From positions 1 to 49,616 of the forward strand of contig CAZTVF010000027.1 in assembly GCA_964616985.1 (NCBI GenBank): a DNA stretch of 49,616 nucleotides. Reading direction: 5' to 3'. This document shows, in pieces, positions 5,499 through 47,396 of this stretch. A model generated the notes under the pieces. The model did not search any database. It was not told where the DNA came from and saw nothing but the letters and a program-made list of their open reading frames with translations. Origin of the DNA: an uncultured Planctomycetaceae bacterium (lineage in GTDB: Bacteria; Planctomycetota; Phycisphaerae; SM23-33). A program made the translations under genes and the position numbers. Numbering within the stretch: the stretch's first letter is position 1; each line of letters starts with the position of its first letter.

Positions 5499-5499
5499 G

Positions 5500-26743: not shown

Positions 26744-27925
26744 CTACTTGATCAGTCGCGCCGAGGCAATGTCGACCTGGTCGCCGACGGGGAGATTGTC
26801 GGGGCCGAAGTCGATGCGGATGGTGAGCTTCTTCACGCCAGTCAAGTCCAGGCGGACATCGAGCGGCGCATCCTTGCCGGTGATGAGGAACGGCTTGGCC
26901 AGTTCCTTCTCATCGCCCAGGAAGGTGACGGCGGCGTTGCCCAGCGGCCGCGCGGCGTCGTCGATGCCGAGGACCGCCACGAACATCTTGAACTTGCCGT
27001 CCACGGCATAGTCGAGCTTGGTGAAGCTGCTGGCGCCCACGCCGCTGGCGTAGACCTTGCCCGCGAGCTTCAGCGGCCCGCCCGCCGCGGCCTTGTTGAT
27101 GCCCACAGGCGTCTTGACGTCGAAGAAGGCGGCCTCTTCCACCTCGGGCTTCAGGGTCGACAACTCCGTGACGCGGGCGGAGATGAATCGCACCGCCGCC
27201 ACCGACTTCCGCGGAATCTGCACCTCGCCGAGGGCGACCGTCTTGGCCGTGAAGATCTCGGCCGCCATCGTGAGGGAATCGAAGACGACCTCGCTGCCGT
27301 CGGTGAGCGTGAGCTTGCCCTTGGCGCCGGCGGGCGTGGCCCCGGCCGTGGCGATGCGGATCGCCCGGATGTTCTTGCGATCGATGAGGCGATCTTCGCC
27401 CTCGTAGCGGAGCGTCACCTTCTGGTCGCCCACCGACACGAGCACGCCCTCGACGCCCGTCCACTCCTTGCCCTGGTCGACGATCACAGTGTCGGCCGAC
27501 TCGGCGCCGGCGGCAACGTCCCTGGCCTGCTGCATGACGGCCTGGGGCAGTTGGCCCGCGGGCGAGAAATAGATGGCGCTGAGCGTCGTGACGTCGCAGG
27601 TGACCTTCCCGAGCCGCGAGTCGAAGCTGGCCTTGCCGTCGGCCACCTTGAGCCCCGACGCCCCCAGCGTGTCGCCAGCGCGGGTGGTGATCACAGTCGC
27701 CCCCGCCTGGGCCAGCAGCGAATCGGCCGTGAGCAGTTCGAGCGAACTCACGTCGGCCAGCGGGATCGCCTGCGACCCCTGGGCGAGCTTGACCTGCACC
27801 TGCTGGGCGGAGATCGACTCGATGGCGCCTTCGAGGACGTTGGCCTCAACGGTCTCGGCGCGCTCCGCCGCACCGGCGACGGCGGCGGCCATGGCGACAC
27901 ATAGGACGGCTGCGAGATATCTCAT
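26744..27925 (-). CDS. Secreted protein with C-terminal NPCBM-like (putative carbohydrate-binding, GH98-associated) domain, 393 aa
   Basis: A signal peptide MRYLAAVLCVAMAAAVAGAA is present. The C-terminus ...DYAVDGKFKMFVAVLGIDDAARPLGNAAVTFLGDEKE...KKLTIRIDFGPDNLPVGDQVDIASARLI resembles NPCBM/NEW2. Confidence 0.55.
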   Translation of the reverse strand: MRYLAAVLCVAMAAAVAGAAERAETVEANVLEGAIESISAQQVQVKLAQGSQAIPLADVSSLELLTADSLLAQAGATVITTRAGDTLGASGLKVADGKASFDSRLGKVTCDVTTLSAIYFSPAGQLPQAVMQQARDVAAGAESADTVIVDQGKEWTGVEGVLVSVGDQKVTLRYEGEDRLIDRKNIRAIRIATAGATPAGAKGKLTLTDGSEVVFDSLTMAAEIFTAKTVALGEVQIPRKSVAAVRFISARVTELSTLKPEVEEAAFFDVKTPVGINKAAAGGPLKLAGKVYASGVGASSFTKLDYAVDGKFKMFVAVLGIDDAARPLGNAAVTFLGDEKELAKPFLITGKDAPLDVRLDLTGVKKLTIRIDFGPDNLPVGDQVDIASARLIK

Positions 27926-27989
27926 GCAAAGGCCTCTGGGCCCGCGGGCCCGGATGGTTCGTGTGGCGCCGGCCTGGCCGGCGCGTCAG

Positions 27990-29252
27990 CTACTTCTGTT
28001 CCTGCGACAGCGACGAGTGGTAGTCGCTCACCAGGTCGCGGTTGCGCTCCGACATGACCTTCTTCATGATCTGCTGCAGGCGGTCGCGTTCGCGAGGCGG
28101 CAGCGACGACCAGTCGGAGGTCTCGTCGGTGGGGTGAATCGTGCCGAGGTTGCGCGGGCGTTCCACCGAGCCGGGAACCACGGCGCTCTTCTGTGCGGGC
28201 GATGACGGGTTGTTGCCGTTCGGCGGCCCGCCCTGGCCCTGCGCCTGGCCCTGCTTCTGTTCCTTGCCGCCTTCCTCGCCCTTCTCGCCCTTCTTCTTGT
28301 CCTTGTCCTGGCTTTGACTCTGGCTCTGGTTGTTCTTTTCCTTCTCTTCCAGCGTGCGGATGAGGTCTTCGAGCACCGCGACGATTTCCTTTTCCTTCTC
28401 CTGCGTCGCCGGGCCGCTGTCCTTCTCGTTGAGCTTCTGCTCCACCTCGCCCATCCGCCCGCCGATGTGGGCCAGCGGATCCTTGTAGATCTTCTGCCAG
28501 CCCTCGACCTTGGCCGTGAGCTTCTGGAAGTCCGCCGTGCTGAACACCAGCCCGTAGTTGCGGGCGCAGTACGTCAGCATCTCCGACGCATAAATGAAGC
28601 GGCCGAGCTTCTCGTACATCTCAGCCGACTCCAGCGCCGACGCCACCGCGAAGCTGATCCGCTCGGGCATGCTCGCCAGCAATTCCTGGTACGCCGCCAG
28701 TGCCTGGTAGGCAGTGTCGCGGCTTTCCTTGCCCTTGTTCTCCTTCGCCTGGTCCTGCGACAGGCCCGCCAGCGCCTTGGCGTAGAGATAGTGCTTGGCC
28801 GTGTTGAGGTAGCTCGACTGCGTGTGATCGAGGCTCTTCAACGCCTCGGTCAATTCGAGGTGCTTGCCCTCGGCCAGCAGCTTGTGATACTTGCCGAACT
28901 GCGTGTCGACCTTGGCCATGGCCTTGCAGATGCGGTCGATGTTGTCCTGGCGGGTGTTGGCGGGCTTGTCGTGCATCGCCTTGATCGCCGCTTCCTTGGC
29001 GTCTTCCTCCAGCAGGAGGCTGTCGCGGATCTCGTCCGACGCCTTGACGCGCTCATCGGCCAGGCGAGATTCCTCCGCCCGCTGCAGGAGCTTCTCGAGT
29101 TCCTCGGGGCTGATGTCCTTCCACAACTCCGCGGCCGTGGCGTTGGCATCGGCCGAGGGCAGCGTGGTGGCTTCCAACCAGGTCTGCGCACGGGCGGCGG
29201 CGGTAAGGCCAAGGCCCGCGACGATTGCGATGATCAGCAGCTTAGTTTTCAT
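27990..29252 (-). CDS. Secreted K/E/Q-rich low-complexity protein (420 aa), member of the MoxR-vWA supra-operon
   Basis: A signal peptide MKTKLLIIAIVAGLGLTAAARA is present. The C-terminal third is poly-charged (KEKNNQSQSQSQDKDKKKGEKGEEGGKEQKQGQAQGQGG). ATG is preceded by GAGGTG. It overlaps the upstream gene end by 11 nt. Confidence 0.5.
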   Translation of the reverse strand: MKTKLLIIAIVAGLGLTAAARAQTWLEATTLPSADANATAAELWKDISPEELEKLLQRAEESRLADERVKASDEIRDSLLLEEDAKEAAIKAMHDKPANTRQDNIDRICKAMAKVDTQFGKYHKLLAEGKHLELTEALKSLDHTQSSYLNTAKHYLYAKALAGLSQDQAKENKGKESRDTAYQALAAYQELLASMPERISFAVASALESAEMYEKLGRFIYASEMLTYCARNYGLVFSTADFQKLTAKVEGWQKIYKDPLAHIGGRMGEVEQKLNEKDSGPATQEKEKEIVAVLEDLIRTLEEKEKNNQSQSQSQDKDKKKGEKGEEGGKEQKQGQAQGQGGPPNGNNPSSPAQKSAVVPGSVERPRNLGTIHPTDETSDWSSLPPRERDRLQQIMKKVMSERNRDLVSDYHSSLSQEQK

Positions 29253-31602
29253 TTTTCACCTCGGTCGGGACAATCGCGCGCGGCTGGGGCTGGTCCTGCT
29301 TCTTGGCCAGCTTCTCCTGGAGTTCCTTGGTCATCTTCGTCACGGACGCCTGGCGATCAGCCAGCGACTTCTGCTGCGTCTCCAACTGCTCGCCGGTCAG
29401 GCTGCCGAGGCGCTTGTCCTGCTCGACGGCCACGGTGCGACTATGGATGCCCGCTTCCAGGGCCATGAGCATCTTCAGTTCGGCGATGGGCGGCACGAGC
29501 GGCTTCTTCCCGCCGCCACCCCCGCCGCCGCCACCACCGCCACCCCCGCCGCCCTTGGGCGGGTTGCGGCGTTCGGCCAGTTCCTTGCGGATCGCGTCGA
29601 TCATCTCCTGCAGATTGCGCTCGATGTCCTTCTGCACGGTCTGCGTCAGCACGCCCGCCTGCTTCTCGGCCAGGCGTTTCTGCGCTTCCTTCAGGTCGTT
29701 CTGCACCTCGACCAGGATCTTCGGGAAGATCGCCGTGGTGCCTTCCTTGGTGAGCATCTCATGGACCTTGGCGATGTCGACGGCGATGTTCGCCTCGCCC
29801 GGCGCCAACTGCCCGGTCAGCTTCAGCTCCGCCGTGCGCAACTCGGTCTTGTCGTTCTCCTTCAAGGAGACCATCTTCTCGTGCGTGGCACGCGTCTGCT
29901 CGGAGATGGCCTTCTGGGCCTTGAGGGACCGGTCCAGCATCTCGTCGATCTTGGCCAGTTCCTCCGCCTTCTTCTGCTCGGTTTCCCTGGCGATGGCCTC
30001 TTCGAGATCTTTCTTCGCCTTCTCGAGTTCTTCGACCGCGTCCTTCTGCTCCGAATTCGCCTTGCCGGGCTTCGACTCACCCATGCTCTGCGAGGCCTTG
30101 TCCATCGACTTCTTGGCGTTCTGTGCCGACTGCTGCCCCGGCGAAGGCTTGCCCGGCTGGGCCGACTTGTCCATGTCCTTGGCCACGTCTTCGGTCTTCT
30201 TGGCGTTCTCTTCCTGGTCCTTCTTCTGCTCGCCGGTCGGCCGCGGCGGCTGTTCCTTCATCTTTCGCTCGAGCTGCGCGAGCTTGTACTGCGCGTCCTT
30301 CTCGAGCTTCTTGATGGCCTCTTTCTGATTCTTGGCGGCCTCGGGGTTGGCCTGCTTCTCGAGATTCTCGCTGGCCTTCTTCATGTCCTCGGCCGCCTTG
30401 GCGATGTTGTCCGTGTTCAAGGCCGGCTGCGACGTCGCGCCCGCGGCCGAGTTCGAATCCGCCGGCTTGGCCCCCAACTGGTTGGGGTCCACGCCCGCGT
30501 CCTTGGCCAGGTCGTTCGCCTTCTTCTCAAGGTCCTGGGTCTTCTTGCCCAGGTCTGATTGCTTCGAGGCCATCTGCCCGCTCTTGCTGCCGGAGCTCAT
30601 CTTGGAGATCGCGTCGGACAGGGCCTGATCGGCCGCCTTCAGGTCGCTCATCGCCTGCGCCTGCGGGTCCGACGCCTTCTTCGACTCGCTCTTGCTCAGG
30701 GCGCTGGCGGCCTTGGACATTTCCTTCGCCGCCGAGTTGATCGCCTTGGCCGCATTGGCAATCGCGTTGGGGTCGGCCCCGGCGCCGGCGACGGCCTTGG
30801 CGAGGTTGGGGTCCTTGGCCGCGTCATCGGCCTTCTTGGCCGTCTCGCCGGTTCGGCCGGCGAGCTTCTCCTGCGACGCGCCGGCCACCGGCAGCTGATC
30901 GACCGGCGTGTTCTCCACCGCCTTGGCGGTCGCGTCCTGGTCGGCCATCGCCTTGCGGACTTCCTCGCGCAGCGCGGCGAGCTTGGCGATATTGGGGTCG
31001 CCGTCGCCAAGTTTCTCCGTCTCGTTCAGCAGTTCCTTCTGTTCCTTGACGATGTCCTTGAGCTGCGAGAACAGGTCCTGCATCCGCTGGTCCATCTCTT
31101 TGCCGTTCTCGGTGCGGGCGGACTCCTTGGCAAGGTTCTTCTCCTTGTCGAGGATCTTGTCCACCTTCTCCAGCTGGGCCTTGAGCTTCTCGATGTACTT
31201 GGCCCGTTCCTCGGGGTCCATCGCGTTGCGGCGCAGCGTCTCGAGCACCTCGCGGAGCTTTTTGATGACTTCGCCTTCCGTTTCGGCCGCCTTCGACGGC
31301 AGGCCCTTGGTCAGCAGCTCGATCACCTTCTCCATATCCTGCGAGATGAACGCCTTCTGGGCCGCGGCCACCGCGTCCAGCAGCGCCTTGGCCGACTCGG
31401 GCTCCGTCTTCTCCAGCAGCTTGGACAGCTCGATCATCGAAGCCGTCAGCTTCTCGAACTGCTCCTTGCTCAGCCGCTGCTCCAGGATCGTGCCCGCGCT
31501 CTGCGTGGCCGCGGCATCCTCGGCGCCGCGCGTCGGCGGCGTCAGACCGGCCAGCCCCGCCAGGGCCGCTGCTACACATGCTGCCACAATGAAACGTTTC
31601 AT
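29242..31602 (-). CDS. Secreted 786-aa coiled-coil/low-complexity protein with a 15-residue polyglycine tract (TIGR02302/DUF4175-like by composition)
   Basis: A signal peptide MKRFIVAACVAAALAGLAGL is present. The protein is extremely K/E/A/Q-rich with heptad-like repeats. ...RNPPKGGGGGGGGGGGGGGGKKPLVPP... is the Gly run. ATG at 31602 is preceded by AAAGGA. Confidence 0.55.
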   Translation of the reverse strand: MKRFIVAACVAAALAGLAGLTPPTRGAEDAAATQSAGTILEQRLSKEQFEKLTASMIELSKLLEKTEPESAKALLDAVAAAQKAFISQDMEKVIELLTKGLPSKAAETEGEVIKKLREVLETLRRNAMDPEERAKYIEKLKAQLEKVDKILDKEKNLAKESARTENGKEMDQRMQDLFSQLKDIVKEQKELLNETEKLGDGDPNIAKLAALREEVRKAMADQDATAKAVENTPVDQLPVAGASQEKLAGRTGETAKKADDAAKDPNLAKAVAGAGADPNAIANAAKAINSAAKEMSKAASALSKSESKKASDPQAQAMSDLKAADQALSDAISKMSSGSKSGQMASKQSDLGKKTQDLEKKANDLAKDAGVDPNQLGAKPADSNSAAGATSQPALNTDNIAKAAEDMKKASENLEKQANPEAAKNQKEAIKKLEKDAQYKLAQLERKMKEQPPRPTGEQKKDQEENAKKTEDVAKDMDKSAQPGKPSPGQQSAQNAKKSMDKASQSMGESKPGKANSEQKDAVEELEKAKKDLEEAIARETEQKKAEELAKIDEMLDRSLKAQKAISEQTRATHEKMVSLKENDKTELRTAELKLTGQLAPGEANIAVDIAKVHEMLTKEGTTAIFPKILVEVQNDLKEAQKRLAEKQAGVLTQTVQKDIERNLQEMIDAIRKELAERRNPPKGGGGGGGGGGGGGGGKKPLVPPIAELKMLMALEAGIHSRTVAVEQDKRLGSLTGEQLETQQKSLADRQASVTKMTKELQEKLAKKQDQPQPRAIVPTEVKNEN

Positions 31603-31651: not shown

Positions 31652-33880
31652 TCATTTATTCTCTGCCGCAGGTCCGGCGGGCTTGGTCTTGGCGCCCGGC
31701 GTGGGATCGAACAGCCTGGAATCTGTCGCCCGCTTGATCTTGAGAATCTCTTCCAGTGTCATATTCGACCGCTCGATCAGCTTGAGCAGTTCCTTCTCCG
31801 CTTCCTGGCGGCTGGTCTTCTCGATCATCTTCCGCAGGATCTCTTCCATCGTGGCGTGGATCTGCGCCTGGGCGGCGGCGATCGCGTCGCCCCGCTGCTG
31901 TATCGCCGCGGCGTCGCCCAGGGCGCCCGCCTGCCCCAGCAGGCCGATCGTTTCCTGGATCGGCTTGCCCAGTTCGGCCAGGGGCTTGGTGAGTTCATCC
32001 GTCATCTGGTCCAGCTCGCGCGGCAGGCTCACCCGGTTGCAACGCATCTCGGCCACGATCGCCGCCATCGTGTCGGCCGCCTTGGCGCATTCGGTGCCCA
32101 CGCTGGTCTGCAGGCGGCCCGACTCGGCCAGCAGGTTGCGGGCCGTGGCCAGGTCGCCGCCCTGGGCGGCCTCGACGGCCGAGGCGGTCCTCGTACGGGC
32201 GGTCTTTTCCACTTCCACCGCCTCGGAGAACTCCACGCGGAGCTCCTTCTGGCGGCGGATCATTTCTTCCTTCATGTCCTCGGGCTTGATGATCCGCAGT
32301 TCGATAACGCCGCTGCGCGAGCCGTTGGGGCCGCACGTGCCGTTGGGCTCCTTCGCCGTCGCCGGGGCCGTCAGCTGCGAAGGCATGTTGTCCCGTGCGG
32401 AGGCGACGATCTCGATGCTCTCGCCCACCTTCAGCGAATACTTCTCCAGGTCCAGCGTGTGCTCCACGCGGAAATCGCGAGACGAGGGCAGGTCGGTCAA
32501 CTCTTCCTTGACCGCCGGCGTGTCCTTTCTGGACATCATGACGTTGGCCACCGCGATGCCGTAGTCATCCTTCAATTGCACCACCAGCGGGATATACGCG
32601 TTGGGCGTCACCACCGCGCCCACCGAGTGCTTCTTCATCTCCACATCCGGCGGCAGGTCGGGCTGGATCTGCACCATGTAAGGCCGCTCGCGGCGGTTGG
32701 TCGAGCTGTCCGTGGCGGTCAGCACCATCTTGAAGCTCCGCGACAAGGCCACGTTTTCGCTGCTGACGGGGAACGAGCCCTTCAACTGCCGCTGGCCGGT
32801 GACGGTCATGTCCTGGACCTTCTTGTCGTCCACGTACAGCGTTGCCGACTGGATGTCCTTGCTCGCGTTGCCGTCGATGAAGATGGTGCTGCCGGGGGTG
32901 GCGACGAAGATGTCACGACCGCCCTCGGAGGAACTCGCCGGCCGCTTCATGTACTCCATGTGCTCGACGCGGAAGCGGATGTCCCTCATCGCCGGCGGGG
33001 GCACGACGGTGACGCGATGCTTGCGGCGGCCGTCGCGGCGGTCGTCGCCGCCGGTGGCATAGAAGGTGAACGGTTCGTCCACGGCAGGGATCTTCTTGCT
33101 GAACCGCACGCCTTCGCTGGCCTGGGCTTCGACCTTGACCTGCAGTTTCTCGCCCGAGGCGTATTCGACGTTGAGCAGGATGAACGGCGGCACCTTGCCG
33201 ACGGCCTCGACCGTGACGTCGAAGTCGTCGCCGCGGATGACGGTGAAGTCCGGGCCGCCCTGCACCACCAGGACCGTGTCCTGCGGCCAGTCGACGTCGG
33301 CAAAGGCGACGTTCCGCTGGAACCACATGGCCATCACGGGCTGCTGCCAGACGGTGAAGCCGATCAGCAGCCCCAGGGCGCAGGCGGCGATCATGCCCAA
33401 CTGGCGGAGGCGGCGGCGTTCGACGACGGCGCTGAAATCCAGTTCGCCGGCCAGTTGATTGGTCTCGGCCGCCAGGCGGCTGAGCATGGCGGGGCTGGCA
33501 TTCTCGGCCTGCTCGGGGGGGCGCTGCGAGAACTGCACCACGCTGACGAGGCGGTCGTCGAGTGTGGGATAATGCTTCTCCAGCAGCAGGGCCAGCGCGC
33601 TGGGGTCCATCGGCACCCGCAGGGGCGACACGAGCGAGCGCCACACCACCAGGCCCACCGCGCCCAGCGACACGGCCATCACCAGGCCTCGCAGCAGCCG
33701 GTCGGTGCGGAAGACGTAGTCGAAGGCGAGCGTGGCGAACACCGTGGCCACCAGCGCCACCAGCATCCAGGCCAGGCCTTCGTTCACCAGGCGCCGCCGC
33801 AGCGACTGCCGCAGCGATTGCAGCTTGTGACGCACTTCCGATTTGAGATAATCGTTGTTCATTCTGGGGCGTTCTCGCAT
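31652..33880 (-). CDS. Membrane-anchored protein (N-terminal TM helices plus large extracytoplasmic region, 742 aa), unknown function
   Basis: TM helices are GLAWMLVALVATVFATLAFDYVF, GLVMAVSLGAVGLVVW and MIAACALGLLIGFTVW. A long, globular-looking domain follows. It runs in series with the vWA genes. Confidence 0.55.
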   Translation of the reverse strand: MRERPRMNNDYLKSEVRHKLQSLRQSLRRRLVNEGLAWMLVALVATVFATLAFDYVFRTDRLLRGLVMAVSLGAVGLVVWRSLVSPLRVPMDPSALALLLEKHYPTLDDRLVSVVQFSQRPPEQAENASPAMLSRLAAETNQLAGELDFSAVVERRRLRQLGMIAACALGLLIGFTVWQQPVMAMWFQRNVAFADVDWPQDTVLVVQGGPDFTVIRGDDFDVTVEAVGKVPPFILLNVEYASGEKLQVKVEAQASEGVRFSKKIPAVDEPFTFYATGGDDRRDGRRKHRVTVVPPPAMRDIRFRVEHMEYMKRPASSSEGGRDIFVATPGSTIFIDGNASKDIQSATLYVDDKKVQDMTVTGQRQLKGSFPVSSENVALSRSFKMVLTATDSSTNRRERPYMVQIQPDLPPDVEMKKHSVGAVVTPNAYIPLVVQLKDDYGIAVANVMMSRKDTPAVKEELTDLPSSRDFRVEHTLDLEKYSLKVGESIEIVASARDNMPSQLTAPATAKEPNGTCGPNGSRSGVIELRIIKPEDMKEEMIRRQKELRVEFSEAVEVEKTARTRTASAVEAAQGGDLATARNLLAESGRLQTSVGTECAKAADTMAAIVAEMRCNRVSLPRELDQMTDELTKPLAELGKPIQETIGLLGQAGALGDAAAIQQRGDAIAAAQAQIHATMEEILRKMIEKTSRQEAEKELLKLIERSNMTLEEILKIKRATDSRLFDPTPGAKTKPAGPAAENK

Positions 33881-38869: not shown

Positions 38870-38934
38870 TACGTCCTCATTCGGCGTTCTCGCGGCCACG
38901 GAGAGCACGGAGAAACGCGGAGAAAAACATGAGA

Positions 38935-39194: not shown

Positions 39195-39360
39195 CGTCCT
39201 GCTTTCCGTCTTCGCTTCTTCTCTCTGAGTTCTCTGAGCCTCTGTGGTCAGCTTCTTCTTCTTCTTCTTCTTTTGCTTATTCTTCTGCAGCTGTTGCTTT
39301 TGCTTCTTCTCTCCGCTTTCTCCGTGCTCTCCGTGGCCTTCCCGTGCTTTTGTGGTCAGC
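39195..39360. repeat. Low-complexity polypyrimidine/polypurine island containing a (CTT)7/(GAA)7 microsatellite and TGTGGTCAGC direct repeats; AT-richer than surroundings
   Basis: It contains cttcttcttcttcttcttttgcttattcttctgcagctgttgcttttgcttcttctc. tgtggtcagc occurs at 39244-39253 and 39351-39360. It lies between the DUF58 stop and the GxxExxY remnant. Confidence 0.6.
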
Positions 39361-40287
39361 CTATTTCCGTGCGCTGGCCTTGCGGAGGGCGGCGGCGCGG
39401 GCGGCGAGGAAGGAGAGCAACGCGGCGTCGAGGTGGTCGGCGGTGGAGACCAGCTTGTAGTCGATCCTGCCGGCGATGCAGCGGCGATTGACGTCGCGGC
39501 AGAAGTCATCCACGGCCTTGAGGTAGCCTTCGCGAAGAGCGCGGGGCTCGATGATGACCCGCCCCGCCTGTTCCAGGCCGCGGAACATCGTGTTGCCCTG
39601 GAACGGGAACGTCAGTTCGTCCTCGTCCATGATGTGCAGCACCATCACCTCGTGGTCGTAGTGGCGGAAGTGCTGCAGGCCCTTGATCAGGCCCTCGATG
39701 TCCGTGAACAGGTCGCTGATCAGGCACACCAGGCCGCGGCGGCTGATCTTCTCGGCCAGGGAATGGCAGATCGGCTCCAGCGAGGTCTTGGCCCGGGGCG
39801 TCTGAAGGTCCAGGGCGTGCACCATCGTCTTGATCTGGTTGGGATTCGCCGAGGCCGGCAGGTACGCCTTCAGTTCCTCGTCGAAGACGGCCAGGCCGAC
39901 GGCGTCCTGCTGCCTCAGCAGCAGCATGGACAGCGAGGCCGCCACCGCGCAGGCGTAGTGGTACTTGGTCATGGCGTCGCGGCCGTCGCGGCGATAGAGC
40001 ATGGACTCGCTCGCGTCGACGATGAACGTCGCCTTGAGGTTGGTCTCCTGCTCGTACTGCTTGATGTAGTAACGGTCGGTCTTGGCCTGCACCTTCCAGT
40101 CGAGGTGCTTGAGATCGTCACCGGGCACGTACTCGCGGTGCGTGGCGAATTCGATCGAGAACCCGTGGAAGGGGCTGCGGTGCAGGCCGGAGATGAAGCC
40201 TTCGACCACCTGCCTGGCCAGGAGGTCCAGGCGGGTGATCTTCGACAGCACCCGCGGGTCGAGATACTTCTGTAATTCGTTACTCAT
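39361..40287 (-). CDS. DUF58-domain protein (degenerate vWA-fold, MoxR partner), 308 aa
   Basis: YVPGDDLKHLDWKVQAKTDRYYIKQYEQETNLKATFIVDASESMLY is the DUF58 hallmark. ATG at 40287 is used, with an in-frame TAA 15 nt upstream. Confidence 0.8.
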   Translation of the reverse strand: MSNELQKYLDPRVLSKITRLDLLARQVVEGFISGLHRSPFHGFSIEFATHREYVPGDDLKHLDWKVQAKTDRYYIKQYEQETNLKATFIVDASESMLYRRDGRDAMTKYHYACAVAASLSMLLLRQQDAVGLAVFDEELKAYLPASANPNQIKTMVHALDLQTPRAKTSLEPICHSLAEKISRRGLVCLISDLFTDIEGLIKGLQHFRHYDHEVMVLHIMDEDELTFPFQGNTMFRGLEQAGRVIIEPRALREGYLKAVDDFCRDVNRRCIAGRIDYKLVSTADHLDAALLSFLAARAAALRKASARK

Positions 40288-40463: not shown

Positions 40464-41519
<1,056 letters not shown>

Positions 41520-41533: not shown

Positions 41534-42676
41534 TCATCTCTGGTAAATGGGGAGGTATCCGTAGGGAAGCTGCAGAATCACCGTCGCCATGGCGGTGCCG
41601 TACGTGGTGCCCACGCTATCGCCGTCCCAACTGCCGTCGGCGGCCTGCATGCTCAACAACTTGTTGCGAATCTTGGGGTAGTACTCGGCCCAGTCCTTCC
41701 CGCCGTGCTGGTACATGCCCTGGGCCATGTAGTACTGCGTGTAGAACCAGTGGCCGTCGTTGGTGTCGGGGAAGGCCGACTTCTTCACGTAGGCCAGGAG
41801 CTTGTCGACCATCTCGGCCTCGACGCCCTTGCCGCCGGCCTGGCGGTCGTAGATGCCCGCGGCGTAGAAGCAGGCGATGGCGGCGGCCGAAATCGCCGGG
41901 CGGCTGGAGCCCTTGGAGGCGAACGAGTAGCAGATGCCGCCGTCGGCCATCTGGCAGGCCTTGAGGTACAGCACCGCCCGCTCGATGGTGCTCTTGGGGA
42001 CGCTGATGCCCGCGTTGCGGCACGCGCGAAGGGCCTGCAGCTGCGTCACGGTCACGCTGCCCTCGTCGCTCTTGCCGTCGGGGGTGTAGATCCACCCGCC
42101 CGCGTGCTTGAGGTTGGGCCCCAGGTCCGACTGTGCCTTGGCCGTGAGGGCGACGGCCTTGTCCAGGGCCTTCTTGATGCGCTTCTCGTTCTCGGTGTTC
42201 ATCTCGATGCCGTAGCACTGGGCCAGGAACAGCATGGCGAAGCCGTGCCCGTACATGCTGCGGCTCTCGGCGCCGGGGCCGGCGATCATGCCGTCGTCCT
42301 GCGCCTCGGCCACGTTGAGGATGTAGTTCATGGCCCGCGTGACTTCCTTGGCGTACGTGCCGCTTTCGGGGGTCGAGCCGTTGGCCATCAGCGACAGGCC
42401 CGCCAGGGACGTCATCACGCTGGGGTACACGCCATAGCCGCCGCCGTTGAGCCACGCCCCGTTGTTGCGCTGCGTCTGGGCGAGGTAGCCGATACCGCGG
42501 TCGATGGCCTTGACCGTCTTCTCGTCCATCATGTCCGGCAGGACGGGCCCCGGGGCCGCCGCCTGCACCGGCGGCGTGCGGACCAGCATCGTGCCCACGG
42601 TGACGGACAGGGCCACAAAGCCCACCATCAACGCCGGGCCGATGAGTCTTCGGTTGTCTCGGTTACGGTGCGCCAT
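41534..42676 (-). CDS. Secreted prenyltransferase/squalene-oxidase-repeat (terpene-cyclase-like alpha/alpha-toroid) protein, 380 aa
   Basis: A signal/anchor LIGPALMVGFVALSVTVGTMLV is present. Three QW-type motifs appear (QRNNGAW, QMADGGICY, QAADGSWDG). Its ATG overlaps the giant gene stop by 14 nt. Confidence 0.7.
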   Translation of the reverse strand: MAHRNRDNRRLIGPALMVGFVALSVTVGTMLVRTPPVQAAAPGPVLPDMMDEKTVKAIDRGIGYLAQTQRNNGAWLNGGGYGVYPSVMTSLAGLSLMANGSTPESGTYAKEVTRAMNYILNVAEAQDDGMIAGPGAESRSMYGHGFAMLFLAQCYGIEMNTENEKRIKKALDKAVALTAKAQSDLGPNLKHAGGWIYTPDGKSDEGSVTVTQLQALRACRNAGISVPKSTIERAVLYLKACQMADGGICYSFASKGSSRPAISAAAIACFYAAGIYDRQAGGKGVEAEMVDKLLAYVKKSAFPDTNDGHWFYTQYYMAQGMYQHGGKDWAEYYPKIRNKLLSMQAADGSWDGDSVGTTYGTAMATVILQLPYGYLPIYQR

Positions 42677-45600
42677 AGATCACCACGCCTTCATTGGTTT
42701 CGATGGCCAGCCGGCCGTTCGTCATCACCGGCGGACCCAGGGGTATCGCGGTCATTCCGTTCATCATCATGAATTGGCGGTTTCCCATCCGCCCCATCCT
42801 CAGGGCGTTGGCCGCTGCCACGTTGTCCGCGCCGCCCTTGCGGGCGACGGCGATCTTCGAGGCGATCTTGCCGGTCTGCACGTCCAGCACGTACACCATG
42901 TCTTCGCCGGTGCCCGTGGTGACGGCGACGGCCACGTGCGTCTGGCCGGCCACCGGCGGCGTCACGAGCAGGTTGGCGTTGTTGCCCACCACCTCGCTCA
43001 CCCAGGCGTACTTCTTGCGTTCGAGGTCCACCTTGGCCACCCAGAGCCCCATGAAAGGCCGCACCGTGCCCCACTGCCGCGGATCGGCAAACTGCGAACT
43101 GCAGGCGATGTAGGCCGAGCTGCCGTCGAAGACGGCGTAGATCGGCGTGATCTCGCCGCCTGAACCGGCCGTGGGCGCCGGCAGCGAGACCAGCGGTTCT
43201 TTGCCGGCCGTCACCGAGCAGATGTCGACCCGGCGGGAGTTGAAGGTGAAGGCGGCGTAGTCGGGGCTGACGCCCAGGATGGTGGGCGCGCTGTTGGCGT
43301 TGTCGTACGTCCGGCTCCACAGGGGCTTGGAGACCTGCCCCGGGTCCAGCGCCGTGACCTTGTTGTCGCTGCACACGATGGCCACGCCCGTGGGCGTGAA
43401 GCAGCCGACGGAACTGGCCTGGCCCTGGAAGGTCTGAATGATGCGGCCCTTCTGGGCCACGTCCAGCAGCGTCACCTGCCGCATCGAGGAGTGGCGGATC
43501 ATGACCAGCCCCCCGCCCACCTGCGGGGGCGTCATCATGGGGTTGCCCACCGCCAGTTGAACCTGGTTCCAGAGCACCTCGCCGGTGGCCATGTCGATGC
43601 AGATGATCCGCCCCACGCCGTCGGCCAGGGCCAGCAGGCCGTCGCCGGTGCCCATGAGGCAGTTGCCCTGCGCGCCGACGGCAGGCTCGGCCAGCGTGCG
43701 GGCCCACTTGGCCTTGGCCGTCCGCAGGTCGTAGCCGCGGATGCCCTCGTTGCTGGCGATCGTCAGCACCTTCTGATCTTTGCTCAGGGCGGCGATGGCG
43801 CCGGTGCCCAGGCCCGAGAAACCGCCCTGCCGCAGCGCGTCCGAAGTGATCGGCGACAACCCCTGCCAGCTGACGGCCGAGGCGGCGTCGCGGGCCTGCG
43901 TGTCGGCCATGATCGCGTGGTTGTTGCTCAGGACCAGGATGCGGTCGCCCAGCCGCAGGGGCTGGTAGTTCTGATCGCGGAGGATGCAGGTATTGTCCTT
44001 GGTCATCTCGAAGATCTTGGTCAAGGGCATTCGCAGCATCGCCGGCAGGCGGGCCTGGCGGACGGGGCCCTCGTGGGGGCCCTGCAGCTTGGTGAGGACG
44101 GTCTCCAGCGACCCCTGCAGATCGCCGAAGGCGACCTGGATGTCGGCCTCGGAGGCGGCCATGCCGGCGGCCTCGCGGGCGGCGTCGCAGTGATAGTTCA
44201 TCGTGCCGCGCTGGTTGTTGCGGCCGTAGACGGCCGCCAGGCCCACGTGAGCGTTAACGCGAAGGGCCCGCTCGACGGTCTCGGCCGTCAGGGGGGACAG
44301 CAGCGGCACGATTTGGGACAACGACCGGTCGGCCTGCTCGGGGGCCTCTTCCAGCGAGCGGCGGTAGAGCAGTTCGCCGGCGAGCAGGCGGGCGTTGTCG
44401 GACCACAGGCTGTTGGGCCAGCGGCGCGAGATGTCGGCCATCGCGTTGGCGTCGTTGGCGGCGCGGGCGCCATCCAGGGCCTCCTTGGCCTGCGCGTCGT
44501 AGGCGGCGTAGATCTGCTGGCCGTGCGTCTGCAGCAGGTCGCGAATGAGATTCTCGCCCAGGCGCGAGCCGACGATGTACTCCACCGACGGCCCCATCAG
44601 GGCGTTCTCCTGGCCGGGGCCGATCTCGACGTCGGCCAGCTCGGTCGAGCCGAACTGCTCGCGAAGCTCCTGTGCCAGCTGCACCGCCAGCGTCGCCTCG
44701 GTGATCTTGGCCTGGCGGAGCTTGGCCGCCTCGGCCGCGTCGGCGACCTTGTCCCTGTCGATGGCGGCCGCAATCTGGTCGGCCCGCAGGCGGTGGAACT
44801 TGGCCAGGCGCACCTTCATGTGCCCCTTCTCCTGGGGCGTCGCCGCGACGCTGTCGGCCAGGAGGTAGTTCTGCTCCATCGCGTTGGGGTCGGTGCCATG
44901 GTCGGCCAGCGCGACATACGTGCGGTAGAGCATGGTCTCGATGCGGGCGATCTTGACGTTGCCGTCGGGGGCGGCGATTTCCTTGGCGGCCAGCAGGTCG
45001 GCCAGGCACTCGCTGAAGTTGCGGCTGCTGAAGGCGAGCTGGGCCCGCGAGAGCAGCAGGTCGGGCTTGTTCTTGGCCGGGGCGGCCTCGAGGCGTTCAC
45101 TCAGGCGGCTGCGGGCGTCGGCATAGTTGAGGTAGCCGCACAGGCCGCCGGCGTTGGCGGCGATCAGCTGCCCGCGGACGCTGAGCAGGTTGCCCAGCAT
45201 GCCGGCGGCCCCGTCGCCGGCCACCAGCGGCAGAGGCTTGCTGGGATAGTTCGGGTCGGTGAGGTCCACGCGGATCAGCCGGCCCGAACCGCTGGCCAGG
45301 ATCGCCGAAGGCGTGACGGCCGGCCGCCCCACCACGGTTTCAGACGAGCCCACGGGCTTGCGGCCCATGTCGGTCAGCGAGACGATCTCCATCGAGGGGC
45401 CGCTGAGCAGCACGCGCGACGTATCGATGGCCGTCAGATCCCTCTTGCCCGAACGCTCCATCTGCTTGAGCAGCGTGCCGTCGTCGGCGGACAGGACCAG
45501 CAGAGTCTGGCTGTCGGCGGGCAGGGCGACAACCTTCGAACCGGCGACGATGATGGGATTGCCGGGGTAGCCCGGTCCCGGGTTGGGGTTGTAGCCCATG

Positions 45601-47396
45601 TTGGGGTTGTTCAACATGCCATGGGGGCTGTCGTACTGGTAGGCCCAGGCGGGCTGGCCGGTGTCGGCCTCGAAGGCGGCGACCACGCCGGCATTGGTTG
45701 CGACATAAACGCGGCCGTCGGCCACGGCCGGAGGGCTGCCCCGGTGGGGCGCCGGGTCGTAACCGTAATTCGGCGTCGGGGGCGGCGTCTGGCAGACCAT
45801 CGCCTGCCACTGCAGCGAGCCGTTGGCGGCGTCGAGGCACAAGAGCTGATAGTTGCCCGCGTAGGCCACGACGGTGTACAGGCGGCCCGCGTCGTAGGTC
45901 GGGGCACACATGTAGCGGCAGCCGCGGACGATCTCGTCCTTGCCCACGCCCTGTCCCAGGCGCCACACCTGCTTGAGCTGGCCCTTGAGCGACAACGCCA
46001 CCAGGTCCGAGGTGTCGCCCGCGTCGTTCCCGTCGCGGCGGCCGCCGTAGTTCTGCGTCGAGGCGCGGTAATTCGCCAGGGCGAATACCTTGCCCTCGGC
46101 CAGCGTCAACGTATAGCGGCCGGTGTCTACAGGCGCTTGCATGTTGCCGTAGTAGCCGCCGTAGCGCTCGGAGCTCTTGTTCTCCCGCTCCAGCGGAAGG
46201 TTCACGGTGATCCACCGCTGCTCGCCGGTGACCAGGTCGCAGGCGACGACCGCGTCGTCGCGACGATAGATCACCACGTCGCCGTAGACGACCGGCTGCA
46301 CCAGCGGCGCCATCGTGAAGCCCGACTGCGAACTGCCGTTGCCGCTGAAGCCCACCGAGACGTGGCCGTTCTTGAGGTTGATCGCGACGCGCTGGTTGGG
46401 GTTATTGCTCGCCTTGAAGGTCTGCCCCATCGCCACCAGCGAGAGCTTGCCCACCTCGACGGGCGGGTTCTGCCAACGCGGCGAGAGCACCACGTTGCTC
46501 TCGCCCATCAGGCCCTGGCCCATCTTCTGGGCGCCCAGGCCGCCCCACTCGTCGGCCGACGCCACCGGCGGCGCCGTCACCGGCGGCATCTTCGCCACCT
46601 CGGCGAGGAAGTCGCTGATCTTCTGCAAACGCCCGGCGATCTTCGCCTCGGCGGCGGCGTGCTTTTCCGACAACTCCTTGGCCACCTCGGCCGCCTTGGC
46701 GGCCTGGCCGCTGAGATGATAGGCGGCGTAGAGCTTGGCCAGCAGCACCGGCCGCTCCAGGCTGCTGTTGCGACGGTCCAGCGCCAGGCGCCAGAAGCGC
46801 GACGCCTGTTCCACCTTGCCCGCGTCGAACAGGATACTGCCGATGATGTTCAGCGTCTTGCCGCCGTAACTGCTGTTGGCGTACCGCATGGCGACTTGCC
46901 GCAGGAGCCCCAGGTCGGAATTGGCCACGCCCTGGTTGTACAACTGCTCCGCCTGCGGATCGTACATCTGGCGGTACAGGGCCAGGCCGTCCTCGGGCAT
47001 CGAGCCGATGATCTCGTTGGCCTTGGCCACGAAAGAGACGTACCGCTTGCCGTCGTCGGCGATCAGCTTGCCCTCGGACTTCTCGGCCAGGGCCTGGAGG
47101 TACTCGATCGCCTTGAGGTATTCCTTCTGCTGGATGAAGTCCTGCGCCTTCTTGACCAGCGCCGCCCGCTCTTCATCGACGTTCACCAGGGGGATGGGCT
47201 TGCTGGTATCGGGCTTCTTGGGCGTGCTGACGCGGACCTGCCCGAGGCACAAGCCCCCTGCCGTCAATAGAACGGCGGCAACGATGGACGCAATGCGAAT
47301 TCTGCCGGTAGTCAATAGCCTACCCCCGCCCAAGGCTGCGGCCTTGGAGCTTGGTGTGAGGACAGGGTCGTTTATCTTCGCCTTCTTTACTGCCAA
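42663..47396 (-). CDS. Giant (1577 aa) membrane-anchored multi-beta-propeller protein with PQQ/BamB-like repeats and a central TPR-like alpha-solenoid; first gene of the supra-operon
   Basis: An N-terminal TM IASIVAAVLLTAGGLCLG is present. Recurrent propeller motifs appear (DLVTGEQRW, AANGSLQWQA, ADTGQPAWAY, MATGEVLWNQ). The putative TTG start at 47396 is preceded by GGAAGG. The antisense 1259-aa ORF is compositional junk. Confidence 0.7.
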   Translation of the reverse strand: MAVKKAKINDPVLTPSSKAAALGGGRLLTTGRIRIASIVAAVLLTAGGLCLGQVRVSTPKKPDTSKPIPLVNVDEERAALVKKAQDFIQQKEYLKAIEYLQALAEKSEGKLIADDGKRYVSFVAKANEIIGSMPEDGLALYRQMYDPQAEQLYNQGVANSDLGLLRQVAMRYANSSYGGKTLNIIGSILFDAGKVEQASRFWRLALDRRNSSLERPVLLAKLYAAYHLSGQAAKAAEVAKELSEKHAAAEAKIAGRLQKISDFLAEVAKMPPVTAPPVASADEWGGLGAQKMGQGLMGESNVVLSPRWQNPPVEVGKLSLVAMGQTFKASNNPNQRVAINLKNGHVSVGFSGNGSSQSGFTMAPLVQPVVYGDVVIYRRDDAVVACDLVTGEQRWITVNLPLERENKSSERYGGYYGNMQAPVDTGRYTLTLAEGKVFALANYRASTQNYGGRRDGNDAGDTSDLVALSLKGQLKQVWRLGQGVGKDEIVRGCRYMCAPTYDAGRLYTVVAYAGNYQLLCLDAANGSLQWQAMVCQTPPPTPNYGYDPAPHRGSPPAVADGRVYVATNAGVVAAFEADTGQPAWAYQYDSPHGMLNNPNMGYNPNPGPGYPGNPIIVAGSKVVALPADSQTLLVLSADDGTLLKQMERSGKRDLTAIDTSRVLLSGPSMEIVSLTDMGRKPVGSSETVVGRPAVTPSAILASGSGRLIRVDLTDPNYPSKPLPLVAGDGAAGMLGNLLSVRGQLIAANAGGLCGYLNYADARSRLSERLEAAPAKNKPDLLLSRAQLAFSSRNFSECLADLLAAKEIAAPDGNVKIARIETMLYRTYVALADHGTDPNAMEQNYLLADSVAATPQEKGHMKVRLAKFHRLRADQIAAAIDRDKVADAAEAAKLRQAKITEATLAVQLAQELREQFGSTELADVEIGPGQENALMGPSVEYIVGSRLGENLIRDLLQTHGQQIYAAYDAQAKEALDGARAANDANAMADISRRWPNSLWSDNARLLAGELLYRRSLEEAPEQADRSLSQIVPLLSPLTAETVERALRVNAHVGLAAVYGRNNQRGTMNYHCDAAREAAGMAASEADIQVAFGDLQGSLETVLTKLQGPHEGPVRQARLPAMLRMPLTKIFEMTKDNTCILRDQNYQPLRLGDRILVLSNNHAIMADTQARDAASAVSWQGLSPITSDALRQGGFSGLGTGAIAALSKDQKVLTIASNEGIRGYDLRTAKAKWARTLAEPAVGAQGNCLMGTGDGLLALADGVGRIICIDMATGEVLWNQVQLAVGNPMMTPPQVGGGLVMIRHSSMRQVTLLDVAQKGRIIQTFQGQASSVGCFTPTGVAIVCSDNKVTALDPGQVSKPLWSRTYDNANSAPTILGVSPDYAAFTFNSRRVDICSVTAGKEPLVSLPAPTAGSGGEITPIYAVFDGSSAYIACSSQFADPRQWGTVRPFMGLWVAKVDLERKKYAWVSEVVGNNANLLVTPPVAGQTHVAVAVTTGTGEDMVYVLDVQTGKIASKIAVARKGGADNVAAANALRMGRMGNRQFMMMNGMTAIPLGPPVMTNGRLAIETNEGVVIYGAP

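Follow-up and report, generated by a model that had tools for sequence, protein, structure and literature searches.

A run of co-directional genes from an uncultured Planctomycetaceae bacterium (Phycisphaerae; SM23-33) places a MoxR ATPase, a DUF58 protein and two vWA proteins among large exported and membrane proteins, and raises the question of whether these genes belong together, to which class of MoxR cluster they should be assigned and what they may do. The stretch analysed here, referred to as the window, comprises 49,616 nt of the forward strand of contig CAZTVF010000027.1 (assembly GCA_964616985.1). Between positions 26744 and 47396, its minus strand carries ten genes that all point in the same direction and are real by codon-position GC; the roughly eleven genes of the initial annotation come down to these ten and one pseudogene remnant. 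From upstream to downstream, the features are:

47397 to 47974, no strand: divergent intergenic stretch ahead of g1, presumed to hold the cluster promoter
42663 to 47396, minus strand: g1, exported or anchored giant of 1577 aa; PQQ_2 at 4.6e-28 in two stretches
41534 to 42676, minus strand: g2, exported toroid of 380 aa; weak SQHop_cyclase_C match
40464 to 41519, minus strand: g3, MoxR-type AAA+ ATPase ('MoxR proper' type); AAA_3 at 1.7e-63, AAA_lid_2 at 1.4e-16
39361 to 40287, minus strand: g4, DUF58 protein; DUF58 at 2.4e-44
38938 to 39161, minus strand: PDDEXK_3 (GxxExxY-type) remnant, a decayed gene within the g4–g5 gap
36545 to 38908, minus strand: g5, BatA_N and vWA protein; BatA at 1.7e-14, TIGR02226 at 64.5 bits
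33935 to 36544, minus strand: g6, TM-vWA protein of 869 aa; VWA_2 at 25.8 bits, under the cutoff of 27
31652 to 33880, minus strand: g7, N-terminal piece of a split DUF4175-type protein, 736–742 aa; no Pfam match for the window protein
29242 to 31602 (or to 31644), minus strand: g8, C-terminal piece of the split protein, 786 aa; DUF4175 at 38.9 bits (cutoff 27.3)
27990 to 29252, minus strand: g9, exported protein of 420 aa; no Pfam match for the window protein
26744 to 27925, minus strand: g10, exported protein of 393 aa; NPCBM at 2.1e-23, aa 254–391
25609 to 26709, minus strand: QueG, a tRNA-modification gene outside the system

The domains named in the initial annotation were recovered by Pfam and NCBIfam HMM searches, gene by gene from g1 to g10, and the motifs were located as well: DASES (DUF58, at aa 91), DDSAS and DDSQS (the vWA pair) and a run of exactly 15 Gly. 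Three products with a DxSxS (MIDAS-type) motif thus stand beside one AAA+ ATPase, as had been proposed. Likewise, the 14-nt overlap, the 11-nt overlap and the TAAATG junction are all present. The gaps, however, were put at 0–60 nt, and three junctions exceed this: MoxR to DUF58 (176 nt), DUF58 to BatA (452 nt, or 491 nt if g5 starts, as is likely, at the ATG at 38869, giving a product of 774 aa) and g9 to the NPCBM gene g10 (64 nt). Promoters could lie in the two long gaps within the cluster (176 and 452–491 nt); in Leptospira, the bat genes are each transcribed independently (PMC3557215). g1 starts with a TTG at 47396, with a GGAAGG ribosome-binding site in front; a consensus scan reported no promoter in 47397–47974, beyond which lie plus-strand coding ORFs (47975–48502 and 48506–49486). 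At the other end, the co-directional run does not stop with the cluster, which is minus-strand throughout as described, but extends one gene beyond, to QueG. As for the remnant in the g4–g5 gap, tblastn with the intact 141-aa copy of locus L001 aligns aa 9–40 and aa 109–141 only, with stops in between. PDDEXK_3 is intact at this junction in L001/L008, L012, L016, L018 and L021, and in the window it probably has no function in the system.

On the level of the individual products, a cytoplasmic core can be set apart from an envelope portion. The MoxR protein g3 (Walker A GVPGLAKT, Walker B LILADE; 71–82% identity to its orthologues in related loci) and the DUF58 protein g4 both have no TM, and g4 no signal peptide either; g3 is predicted to be cytoplasmic and g4 to be a vWA-like cytoplasmic partner. 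For all eight other products, a signal peptide or TMs are predicted, and because this holds for every product outside the core, a location in the envelope fits.

The vWA domains of g5 and g6 are predicted to be periplasmic. In g5, the loop of the BatA_N double-TM hairpin is rich in Arg and Lys, and the hairpin is followed by the vWA domain (MIDAS DDSAS), an Ig-like domain (CARDB/DUF11), a GATase1/ThuA-like domain and, at the C-terminus, a TM. Its orthologues match BatA (25/25), VWA_2 (25/25), CARDB (16), GH42M (9), GATase1_like (7) and ThuA (4), and have D114 and S118 invariant and S116 nearly so. A topology with three TMs and a periplasmic vWA domain, as in the g5 layout, is experimentally established for BB0173 (PMC5700661). 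g6 has a TM hairpin at its N-terminus and a TM at its C-terminus, and between them lie a vWA domain (MIDAS DDSQS) and domains of the GATase1_like, DUF7408 and MG2/Ig-like types; among its orthologues, VWA_2 is matched in 20 of 28, DUF7408 in 15, GATase1_like in 10 and MG2 in 5, with D104 and S108 invariant and S106 nearly so.

The 742-, 786- and 420-aa products g7, g8 and g9 had been regarded as independent novel accessories. Since they are fused in other genomes, sequence comparison identifies them instead as fragments of a single long protein of the DUF4175 type, and this family is already annotated in databases. g7 has three TMs and a highly conserved segment (aa 81–159) predicted to be cytoplasmic; after the TMs come three beta-sandwich domains with an invariant TGGDD motif, predicted to be periplasmic, and then a long helical bundle. 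Its AF2 model (pLDDT 87.7) retrieved only generic tandem Ig/MG arrays in Foldseek (TM-score 0.11–0.16). Within the g7 family, 2 of 27 members match DUF4175, and a profile search gathered 19,269 cluster representatives at E<=1e-3, with 6,347 still matching at E<=1e-30. g8 is exported, Ala/Lys/Glu-rich and apparently helical; its Gly run (15 G here) and the subsequent PLVPPxAELKML are kept in 21 orthologues, and hhalign places it on the C-terminus (824–1214) of a 1224-aa protein that is undivided in L044, with a probability of 99.9 (E 8.9e-34). In g9, the N-terminal part is TPR-like (TPR_16, ANAPC3 and TPR_6 match in 4–6 of 23 orthologues), and a linker of low-complexity K/E/Q sequence connects it to a C-terminal part in which the motif W..LPPR.RE...SERYR..IRDY is conserved. 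The last 160 aa of g9 can be aligned with the C-terminus (1117–1268) of the 1279-aa g7-like protein of L061 (probability 98.5, E 1.9e-15). TIGR02302 was not matched by any window protein in the NCBIfam search.

The remaining three products are exported, and no accessory fell into any well-characterised unrelated enzyme family, in line with what had been expected. The giant g1 has a hydrophobic anchor at its N-terminus (one TM, aa 33–51) and a TPR region, and a helical region separates its two beta-propeller regions, which are PQQ_2/BamB-like; NCBIfam yields weak matches to BamB and YbgF-TPR only, and the PF01011 match covers just positions 51–149 of 595. A quinoprotein (PQQ) dehydrogenase was considered for g1 and rejected, as its score (TIGR03075, 29 bits) is far under the cutoff of 480 bits and its blades are BamB-like. 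g2, the accessory protein with the best conservation, is a single (alpha/alpha)6 domain with QW-type repeats, in which an export signal precedes a barrel of ~340 aa. The 'terpene-cyclase fold' attributed to it is borne out for the barrel and the QW repeats, which it shares with squalene-hopene cyclase and prenyltransferase/squalene-oxidase-repeat (QW) proteins, and no further: the repeats alone align, the DxDD catalytic region does not, and NCBIfam cyclase scores are 24–30 bits against cutoffs of 322–851. Finally, g10, the last cluster gene, encodes a signal peptide and a C-terminal NPCBM (discoidin-like lectin) domain.

The same gene order is found in about 30 species-level Phycisphaerae/Planctomycetota genomes, in which the poorly conserved proteins are 28–45% identical. 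In the neighbourhood comparison, the accessory genes thus keep their place beside the MoxR core even between deeply diverged genomes; accidental adjacency, which would have refuted the initial annotation, is not what is seen. g2–g6 occur in 24 of 26 close loci; g8–g10 keep an identical order in all 19 that are long enough, and g10 lies downstream in all 19 reaching that far. In L001 and L062–L064, a PQQ_2 protein of 1509–1577 aa is the first gene, directly upstream of the toroid gene. The flanks vary among genomes (MarR, QueG, HtrA, KdpA), which marks the block itself as the conserved unit. Rearranged loci of Pirellulales, Thermoguttaceae and other lineages retain the propeller protein and the toroid. 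The order in Pirellulales and Thermoguttaceae is PQQ_2, MoxR, DUF58, BatA, g6, fused g7/g8 and toroid; Pirellulales-type loci also keep NPCBM, which follows the toroid where the rearranged locus is long enough (L040, L044, L061). In a third arrangement, giant and toroid are placed between g6 and g7. Since g2 is missing from its usual place in two of the 26 loci and duplicated in two, and the block stops after g6 in one genome (L063), the system is modular, without obligatory completeness. The non-planctomycete clusters compared were those of Acidobacteriota, which have a simpler form of the core, with DUF4159; compared with them, only the propeller giant, the toroid and the NPCBM protein count as additions.

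The core had been equated with the Bat arrangement of Bacteroides and Leptospira. The Bat cluster (MoxR, DUF58 and BatA–BatE in Bacteroides fragilis and spirochaetes) likewise has a MoxR (AAA_3) gene followed by DUF58, a protein with a BatA_N double-TM hairpin, a MIDAS vWA domain and a C-terminal TM, and a second membrane vWA protein (PMC3557215, PMC5700661). Deletion of the Leptospira bat genes gave no phenotype (PMC3557215). The equation nevertheless fails: HMM searches of the ten products found no match to BatD (PF13584) or the SH3 domain of BatE, and BatA and BatB measure ~330 aa, whereas g5 and g6 are long, multidomain proteins of 774–869 aa. Judged by its sequence, g9 is the sole possible BatC counterpart, with a weak TPR match in its orthologues only. 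As had been noted, the Bat operon has no propeller giant, toroid or NPCBM protein. The Gly15 protein counted among the additions is a DUF4175 fragment; DUF4175, too, is absent from the Bat cluster. With GATase1-like, Ig-like and DUF7408 domains in g5 and g6, and without BatD and the BatE SH3 domain, the core has more in common with MoxR clusters of the long BatA_N/DUF4175 type than with BatA–BatE of Bacteroides.

We take the 'broadly conserved operon' RL3499–RL3502 of Rhizobium leguminosarum to represent this TIGR02226 (BatA_N)/DUF4159/DUF4175 (TIGR02302) neighbourhood. By domain annotation and family descriptions, this type shares MoxR proper, DUF58, long BatA_N membrane proteins and a DUF4175-type protein whose N-terminal TMs are combined with a long exported stretch, low in complexity and rich in Gly; the planctomycete cluster differs in having DUF4175 split over three genes and in its three extra exported proteins. 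RL3499 is cited in PMC3893208 for its importance to membrane integrity and cell morphology. A MoxR-like ATPase and a vWA protein are also shared with arc2 (PA4317–PA4323), an uncharacterised Pseudomonas aeruginosa operon that gives some protection from the T6SS-delivered toxin ColA and so helps cells to survive envelope damage; toroid, NPCBM and propeller are not reported there (bioRxiv 2021.08.22.457286). We read the locus, with about even confidence, as a conserved planctomycete variant of the MoxR–DUF58–BatA_N/vWA–DUF4175 envelope systems, in which a membrane platform serves exported partners.

To our knowledge, the only MoxR/DUF58/two-vWA module with a defined biochemical output is Mxa, and by analogy MxaRSACKL is the closest functional precedent: its MoxR is MxaR, its DUF58-type vWA protein is MxaS, and MxaC and MxaL are vWA proteins as well. 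MxaR, MxaS, MxaC, MxaL, MxaA and MxaK are all needed to insert Ca2+ into methanol dehydrogenase, a periplasmic, PQQ-type beta-propeller protein encoded in the same gene cluster (PMC12276312). The MoxR–DUF58–vWA–vWA core might accordingly act solely to insert a metal such as Ca2+ or a cofactor into g1 as its client, with the other products as helpers; g1 has PQQ_2/PQQ repeats and leads the cluster in every locus reaching that far, and rearranged clusters also retain a PQQ_2 protein. We nevertheless consider this unlikely, given the sub-cutoff quinoprotein score and BamB-like blades of g1, the core without any propeller in Acidobacteriota and the failure to detect counterparts of MxaA, MxaK, MxaJ or cytochrome cL in the cluster. 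Furthermore, the large DUF4175, toroid and lectin parts have no Mxa counterpart, and the Mxa vWA proteins do not have the large extra domains of g5 and g6.

The NPCBM domain, the barrel and the propellers might instead bind polysaccharide, either external or in the periplasm, with the ATPase platform driving uptake, tethering or attachment to surfaces, as would fit a polysaccharide-degrading lifestyle. Such glycan capture or adhesion seems distinctly improbable: transporter, TonB-dependent receptor, secretin and pilus genes are all absent from the conserved block, g2 showed no signature of a catalytic glycosidase, nearby CAZyme genes vary rather than being conserved with the cluster, and the lectin is lacking from relatives of the core in Acidobacteriota and elsewhere.

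A MoxR–vWA 'ternary' conflict (immunity) system of the type that Kaur, Burroughs, Iyer and Aravind have set out, with the propeller as invader sensor and NPCBM as lectin-type sensor, is very hard to sustain. The MoxR protein does match Pfam bpMoxR (38.7 bits, cutoff 27), and beta-propeller, vWA and NPCBM are all there, the latter occurring in some conflict systems (PMC8195603); yet AAA_3 scores far higher (212.8 bits), effector, VMAP, iSTAND and Death-like domains were not detected, and PADLOC matched none of the ten proteins. Moreover, the propeller, vWA and NPCBM proteins are predicted to be exported or membrane-anchored here and are intracellular there (PMC8195603), and the block lies in conserved chromosomal synteny without mobile or variable character. 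That the accessories neighbour the core merely through close relatedness of the compared genomes is scarcely credible: these are all MAGs of one phylum, and the unrelated QueG trailing the cluster in 11 loci indicates that gene order is passively retained here, but order and strand hold down to 23–45% identity, membership outlasts differing flanks and three different rearrangements, and g7, g8 and g9 are fused elsewhere.

The reading as a planctomycete variant of the long BatA_N/DUF4175 envelope systems builds on the genes present and their synteny, on the topology predicted for their products, on the g2 and g7 folds and on the gene fusions. MoxR and the vWA-like DUF58 protein would remain in the cytoplasm, while an inner-membrane platform would be formed by g5, by g6 and by the DUF4175 protein split into g7, g8 and g9. 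Its short conserved cytoplasmic segments would be the BatA_N loop and aa 81–159 of g7, and its large periplasmic parts the vWA/MIDAS, Ig-like, GATase1-like and helical-bundle modules, to which the exported partners may bind, namely g1 with its TPR region and double propeller, g2 with its (alpha/alpha)6 toroid, and g10, the NPCBM lectin. As for the direction of action, we infer that ATP-driven remodelling by MoxR–DUF58 on the cytoplasmic side could be passed on to metal-dependent, MIDAS-mediated binding or maturation of g1, g2 and g10 in the periplasm. Because only binding modules and no catalytic domain were recognised in the cluster products, assembly or maintenance is the default reading of its physiological role. 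The cluster most likely builds or maintains a cell-envelope complex, which may be a glycan-binding one.

The cluster consists of ten genes, which we call g1 to g10 and list here with their junctions and flanks. The G+C content of the window is 64–70%, and true genes were told from the many shadow ORFs by codon-position GC.

Genes, junctions and flanks of the cluster
47397–47974: divergent intergenic region 5' of g1
47396 down to 26744, minus strand: cluster of ten genes, g1 to g10
42663–47396, minus strand: g1, propeller giant; 14-nt overlap with g2
41534–42676, minus strand: g2, toroid protein; 14-nt gap to g3
40464–41519, minus strand: g3, MoxR; 176-nt gap to g4 on the same strand
39361–40287, minus strand: g4, DUF58; 452-nt gap to g5 (491 nt if g5 starts at the ATG at 38869)
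38938–39036 and 39066–39161, minus strand: PDDEXK_3 (GxxExxY-type) gene remnants inside the gap 38909–39360
36545–38908, minus strand: g5, BatA-type protein; abuts g6 (TAAATG)
33935–36544, minus strand: g6, vWA membrane protein; 54 nt to g7
31652–33880, minus strand: g7; 49 nt to g8
29242–31602, minus strand: g8; 11-nt overlap with g9
27990–29252, minus strand: g9 (420 aa); 64-nt gap to g10
26744–27925, minus strand: g10, NPCBM protein
25609–26709, minus strand: queG (epoxyqueuosine reductase), 34 nt 3' of g10

Domain scans and a motif check bore out the gene list, domains, MIDAS motifs and Gly15 run of the initial annotation. Two of its statements were wrong: the count of about eleven genes, and the range of 0–60 nt for the gaps, which is exceeded widely at g3/g4 and g4/g5 and slightly at g9/g10. 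For g5, the start at 38869, with its GAGGA ribosome-binding site, is the more likely one. Neither the promoter nor the terminator scan rose above chance level, so that both are uninformative on transcript structure, and Rfam and tRNA scans across the window gave no matches. We rejected queG as an eleventh member: its function is known and unrelated, and it comes after the cluster in 11 related loci, no more than about half of the loci extending that far. Its adjacency probably reflects passive retention of gene order; read-through co-transcription with the cluster is possible. A 666-aa plus-strand ORF (23687–25687; predicted bounds), with coding-like GC3 and no Pfam match, converges with queG and is predicted to overlap its 3' end by about 79 nt. 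The left part of the window carries genes for glycan-degrading enzymes (539–7704 and 13653–16625: GH106-like, PL8 lyase, GHL6/fucosidase-like and GH116), consistent with a polysaccharide-degrading planctomycete; these have no conserved linkage to the cluster.

The cluster is conserved as a block. A neighbourhood search anchored on the g7 family, with a 12-sequence alignment and one genome per species, yielded 54 loci, nearly all from Phycisphaerae/Planctomycetota and a few from Acidobacteriota, and all from metagenome-assembled genomes (MAGs). A genome whose g7 is 39% identical contains the full series in unchanged order and carries an intact PDDEXK_3 gene at the junction where the window has its remnant; the order is also unchanged at 34% and 27% g7 identity, with differing flanks. 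In a tblastn matrix, g2–g6 were found in 24 of 26 close loci and g8–g10 in all 19 that extend far enough, while a g2-anchored search revealed three further genomes in which a PQQ_2 giant of about 1500 aa opens the cluster directly upstream of g2. Given this conserved order in divergent genomes, the accessory genes are syntenic with the MoxR core; a lack of such synteny is what would have refuted the initial annotation. Other arrangements exist: loci of the Pirellulales/Thermoguttaceae type encode a PQQ_2 protein, MoxR, DUF58, BatA, g6 and one g7-like protein of 1220–1390 aa, followed by the toroid and then, where the locus extends that far, by the NPCBM protein, and in a third planctomycete arrangement the giant and the toroid are inserted between g6 and g7. 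The Acidobacteriota relatives, the only non-planctomycete clusters compared, have just MoxR, DUF58, BatA, a long g7-like protein and DUF4159, so that the double-propeller giant, the conserved toroid and the NPCBM protein are additions over them. A literature search found no description of the planctomycete cluster or its arrangement.

Individual loci vary further. In L063 (15671–21131), g6 is the last gene of the cluster and AraC and pyruvate formate-lyase genes come next, which makes g1–g6 separable from g7–g10. Lineage-specific additions are a GH172 gene between g6 and g7 (L004, 8896–9993) and, 3' of the NPCBM gene, two HtrA-like PDZ proteases (L005, 16609–19829) or an STN-domain protein gene (L006, 18003–19688).

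The core of the cluster is formed by g3 to g6. [quoted passage not shown] The BatA-type protein g5 (PF07584, 54.5 bits; TIGR02226, 64.5 bits; VWA_2, 31.1 bits) has three transmembrane helices (TMs), two in a BatA_N hairpin and one at the C-terminus, and a vWA domain with the MIDAS motif DDSAS. At 25.8 bits, g6 falls under the VWA_2 cutoff of 27; 20 of its 28 orthologues match this model (E ≤ 0.1), and within the orthologue set two MIDAS residues, D104 and S108, are invariant and a third, S106, is nearly so. The two proteins share a common plan, namely an N-terminal TM hairpin, a vWA domain with an invariant or near-invariant MIDAS and a C-terminal TM, and their orthologue sets also contain Ig-like, GATase1-like and DUF7408 domains; Pfam scans of these sets are the sole basis of the common domain order, as pairwise BLASTP of g5 against g6 gave no significant similarity. 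GATase1_like (PF07090), which stands with ThuA and DUF4159-type domains for the periplasmic GATase1-like module of the vWA membrane proteins in RL3499–3502-like clusters, is matched by 10 of 28 g6 orthologues (best E 6.9e-7) and 7 of 25 g5 orthologues (best 1.3e-4); in the window proteins, the region is marked by a weak ThuA match alone (E = 0.09). The positive-inside distribution predicts a periplasmic vWA domain in both proteins, and for the Borrelia BatA-type protein BB0173 this location has been shown experimentally (PMC5700661). In two MAGs, the g5 orthologue carries an in-frame stop (L014, 4858–7158; L020, 4896–7226), for which sequencing error, pseudogene formation and recoding are all conceivable.

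Besides the PDDEXK_3 remnants, the gap between DUF58 and BatA contains a purine-rich (AAG)n run. Intact PDDEXK_3 copies lie at this junction in L001/L008, L012, L016, L018 and L021, and at other cluster junctions in L036, L054 and L055. Their identity in close planctomycete loci (59–67%) exceeds the conservation of the flanking g5, which suggests a recurrent hitch-hiker or an optional member.

The three genes that follow the core had been read as separate accessories, a view that gene fusions in other genomes contradict. The confidently predicted structure of g7 (pLDDT 87.7) comprises three TM helices, with a small helical segment set between the second and the third, as well as three β-sandwich domains and a long helical bundle. 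Its conservation peaks in residues 81–159, the predicted cytoplasmic TM2–TM3 segment, and in an invariant TGGDD motif (270–274) in the first, predicted periplasmic, β-sandwich; the former is a candidate docking site for MoxR-DUF58, the latter for a MIDAS site. We rejected g7 as an α-2-macroglobulin/C3 homolog, since Foldseek against the PDB returned only generic tandem Ig/complement MG arrays with TM-scores of 0.11–0.16. The exported, Ala/Lys/Glu-rich g8 matches DUF4175 (PF13779) at 38.9 bits, above the cutoff of 27.3, and its Gly run and the ensuing PLVPPxAELKML motif are conserved among orthologues; two relatives of g7 also hit PF13779. Likewise exported, g9 has a conserved C-terminal motif and, in some orthologues, weak TPR similarity. 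Pairwise BLASTP found no significant similarity between g7 and g8, and the alphaproteobacterial DUF4175 model TIGR02302 matched neither at E ≤ 0.01. In L044, g7 and g8 are fused: a single 1224-aa protein has a Gly12 run near its end, followed by PLIPPMAELKML, and aligns with the g8 profile over residues 824–1214 (probability 99.9, E 8.9e-34). In L061, the C-terminus of a 1279-aa g7-like protein aligns with the last 160 residues of the g9 profile (probability 98.5, E 1.9e-15). By these alignments, g7 and g8, together with the tail of g9 at least, correspond to one long DUF4175-type protein that is split here, and thus to pieces of a known, if uncharacterised, family. Judged by sequence, the fusions link the three physically and indicate which parts make one protein. 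The three-way split is found in the window's lineage, but not in Pirellulales-type loci.

The remaining products are exported. The 1577-aa g1 bears a hydrophobic anchor at its N-terminus, and besides a TPR stretch it includes a pair of PQQ_2/BamB-like propeller regions. The g2 product consists of one barrel, about 340 aa long, and the best 120 of its more than 3000 homologues are at least 62% identical. Its terpene-cyclase-like fold, as initially annotated, stands insofar as the QW repeats align to squalene-hopene cyclase; no full-length match including the DxDD region was found. With the profile meeting this enzyme at the QW repeats only, we rejected g2 as a class II terpene or squalene-hopene cyclase; the cyclase models TIGR01507, TIGR01787 and TIGR03463 gave 24–30 bits, with cutoffs of 322–851. 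We also rejected a thioester (TED) domain, because g2 has no CGEQ-like motif and C4, C5 and TEP1 ranked well under cyclases and glycosidases. Tandem g2 copies occur in L019 (490–2755) and L022 (487–2753), whereas in L035 and L039 (near 2000–2500) g2 is absent from its usual position and g1 adjoins MoxR. Finally, g10 carries a C-terminal NPCBM lectin domain.

How do these components relate to known systems? The Bat-type core proposed initially holds for MoxR, DUF58 and BatA_N-vWA: as in the Bat (BatA–E) class, MoxR-type AAA_3 and DUF58 genes are adjacent, and g5 has the BatA architecture, at more than twice the usual BatA length. For BatB, a second membrane vWA protein, g6 is a candidate counterpart, with its VWA_2 score just under the cutoff. 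The likeness does not extend to BatC, BatD and BatE, as BatD (PF13584) and the SH3 domain of BatE had no match among the ten products (E ≤ 0.01) or the six that were rescanned (E ≤ 10), and BatC (TPR) has a counterpart just in the weak TPR matches of some g9 orthologues. The long BatA_N/GATase1-like/DUF4175 type fits the cluster better than the Bat class. Like the RL3499–3502 type, as judged by domain annotation, it encodes a DUF4175-type protein with N-terminal TMs and a long exported, Gly-rich low-complexity part, although TIGR02302 gave no match.

Of the ten products, one is an AAA+ ATPase, another a soluble vWA-like protein, three are membrane proteins with their bulk predicted in the periplasm, and five are exported proteins with binding or scaffold modules; no enzyme signature is recognisable among them. 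Conservation covers the MIDAS sites and also short segments in g5 and g7 with a predicted cytoplasmic location. We infer that MoxR-DUF58 docks on these segments and that its ATP-driven remodelling would be passed on to a periplasmic platform of vWA and DUF4175 proteins. This platform may bind, mature or hold g1, g2 and g10 via metal-dependent contacts, and the end product would be a glycan-binding envelope complex.

The best functional precedent is MxaRSACKL, which likewise has MoxR, a DUF58-type vWA protein and two further vWA proteins per cluster, each of them required to load a periplasmic propeller enzyme with Ca2+ (PMC12276312). The main rival explanation is an Mxa-like system with g1 as its single client. 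The Mxa client, however, is a PQQ-dependent alcohol dehydrogenase of the MxaF/XoxF type, and g1 lies far under the quinoprotein dehydrogenase models (TIGR03075, 29.4 bits against a cutoff of 480), its match to PF01011 being confined to profile positions 51–149 of 595. The second rival is a glycan-capture system. A conflict (immunity) system fails on architecture, location and the absence of PADLOC matches for the ten products: MoxR-vWA ternary conflict systems are intracellular and combine vWA proteins tied to effectors with a VMAP/iSTAND/TERNS3-type third component (PMC8195603), whereas the window's vWA proteins and propeller are membrane-anchored or exported, and neither effector nor VMAP/iSTAND/TERNS3-type domains were detected among the cluster's products. 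Envelope-integrity phenotypes reported for related clusters in Pseudomonas (bioRxiv 2021.08.22.457286) and Rhizobium (PMC3893208) are in line with the envelope-complex reading.

The arrangement of the cluster is not surprising in principle. A bolder reading, which we consider improbable, is a Planctomycetota-specific trans-envelope nanomachine. Here, a cytoplasmic MoxR-DUF58 AAA+ motor would power, across the inner membrane, a stalk of helical and Ig domains, the split DUF4175 protein, that would span the periplasm and bear a head of lectin, toroid and double-propeller. It might form part, in structure or in function, of the apparatus with which planctomycetes capture macromolecules, or of their unusual enlarged periplasm. 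If true, this would also explain the role of the enigmatic Bat/MoxR-DUF58 class as a whole.

Among bacterial gene neighbourhoods without a known function, MoxR-DUF58-BatA-type clusters rank with the most widespread, and their role has been elusive since 1999. To our knowledge, genetics in Bacteroides, Leptospira, Francisella, Rhizobium and Pseudomonas has yielded just vague stress or envelope phenotypes. The g7 family is large: a profile search returned 6,347 cluster representatives at E ≤ 1e-30, and 19,269 with the threshold relaxed to E ≤ 1e-3. The thousands of environmental relatives at the stricter threshold indicate that the system is common in nature. The planctomycete version is unusually informative because candidate clients or partners, the double-propeller giant, the toroid and the lectin, are kept within a conserved block, while the gene fusions and the conserved segments predicted to be cytoplasmic, as natural ATPase docking sites, lead to testable predictions on contacts, topology and clients. 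The cluster is thus useful in supplying candidate partners and contact sites for a functionally elusive class of systems.
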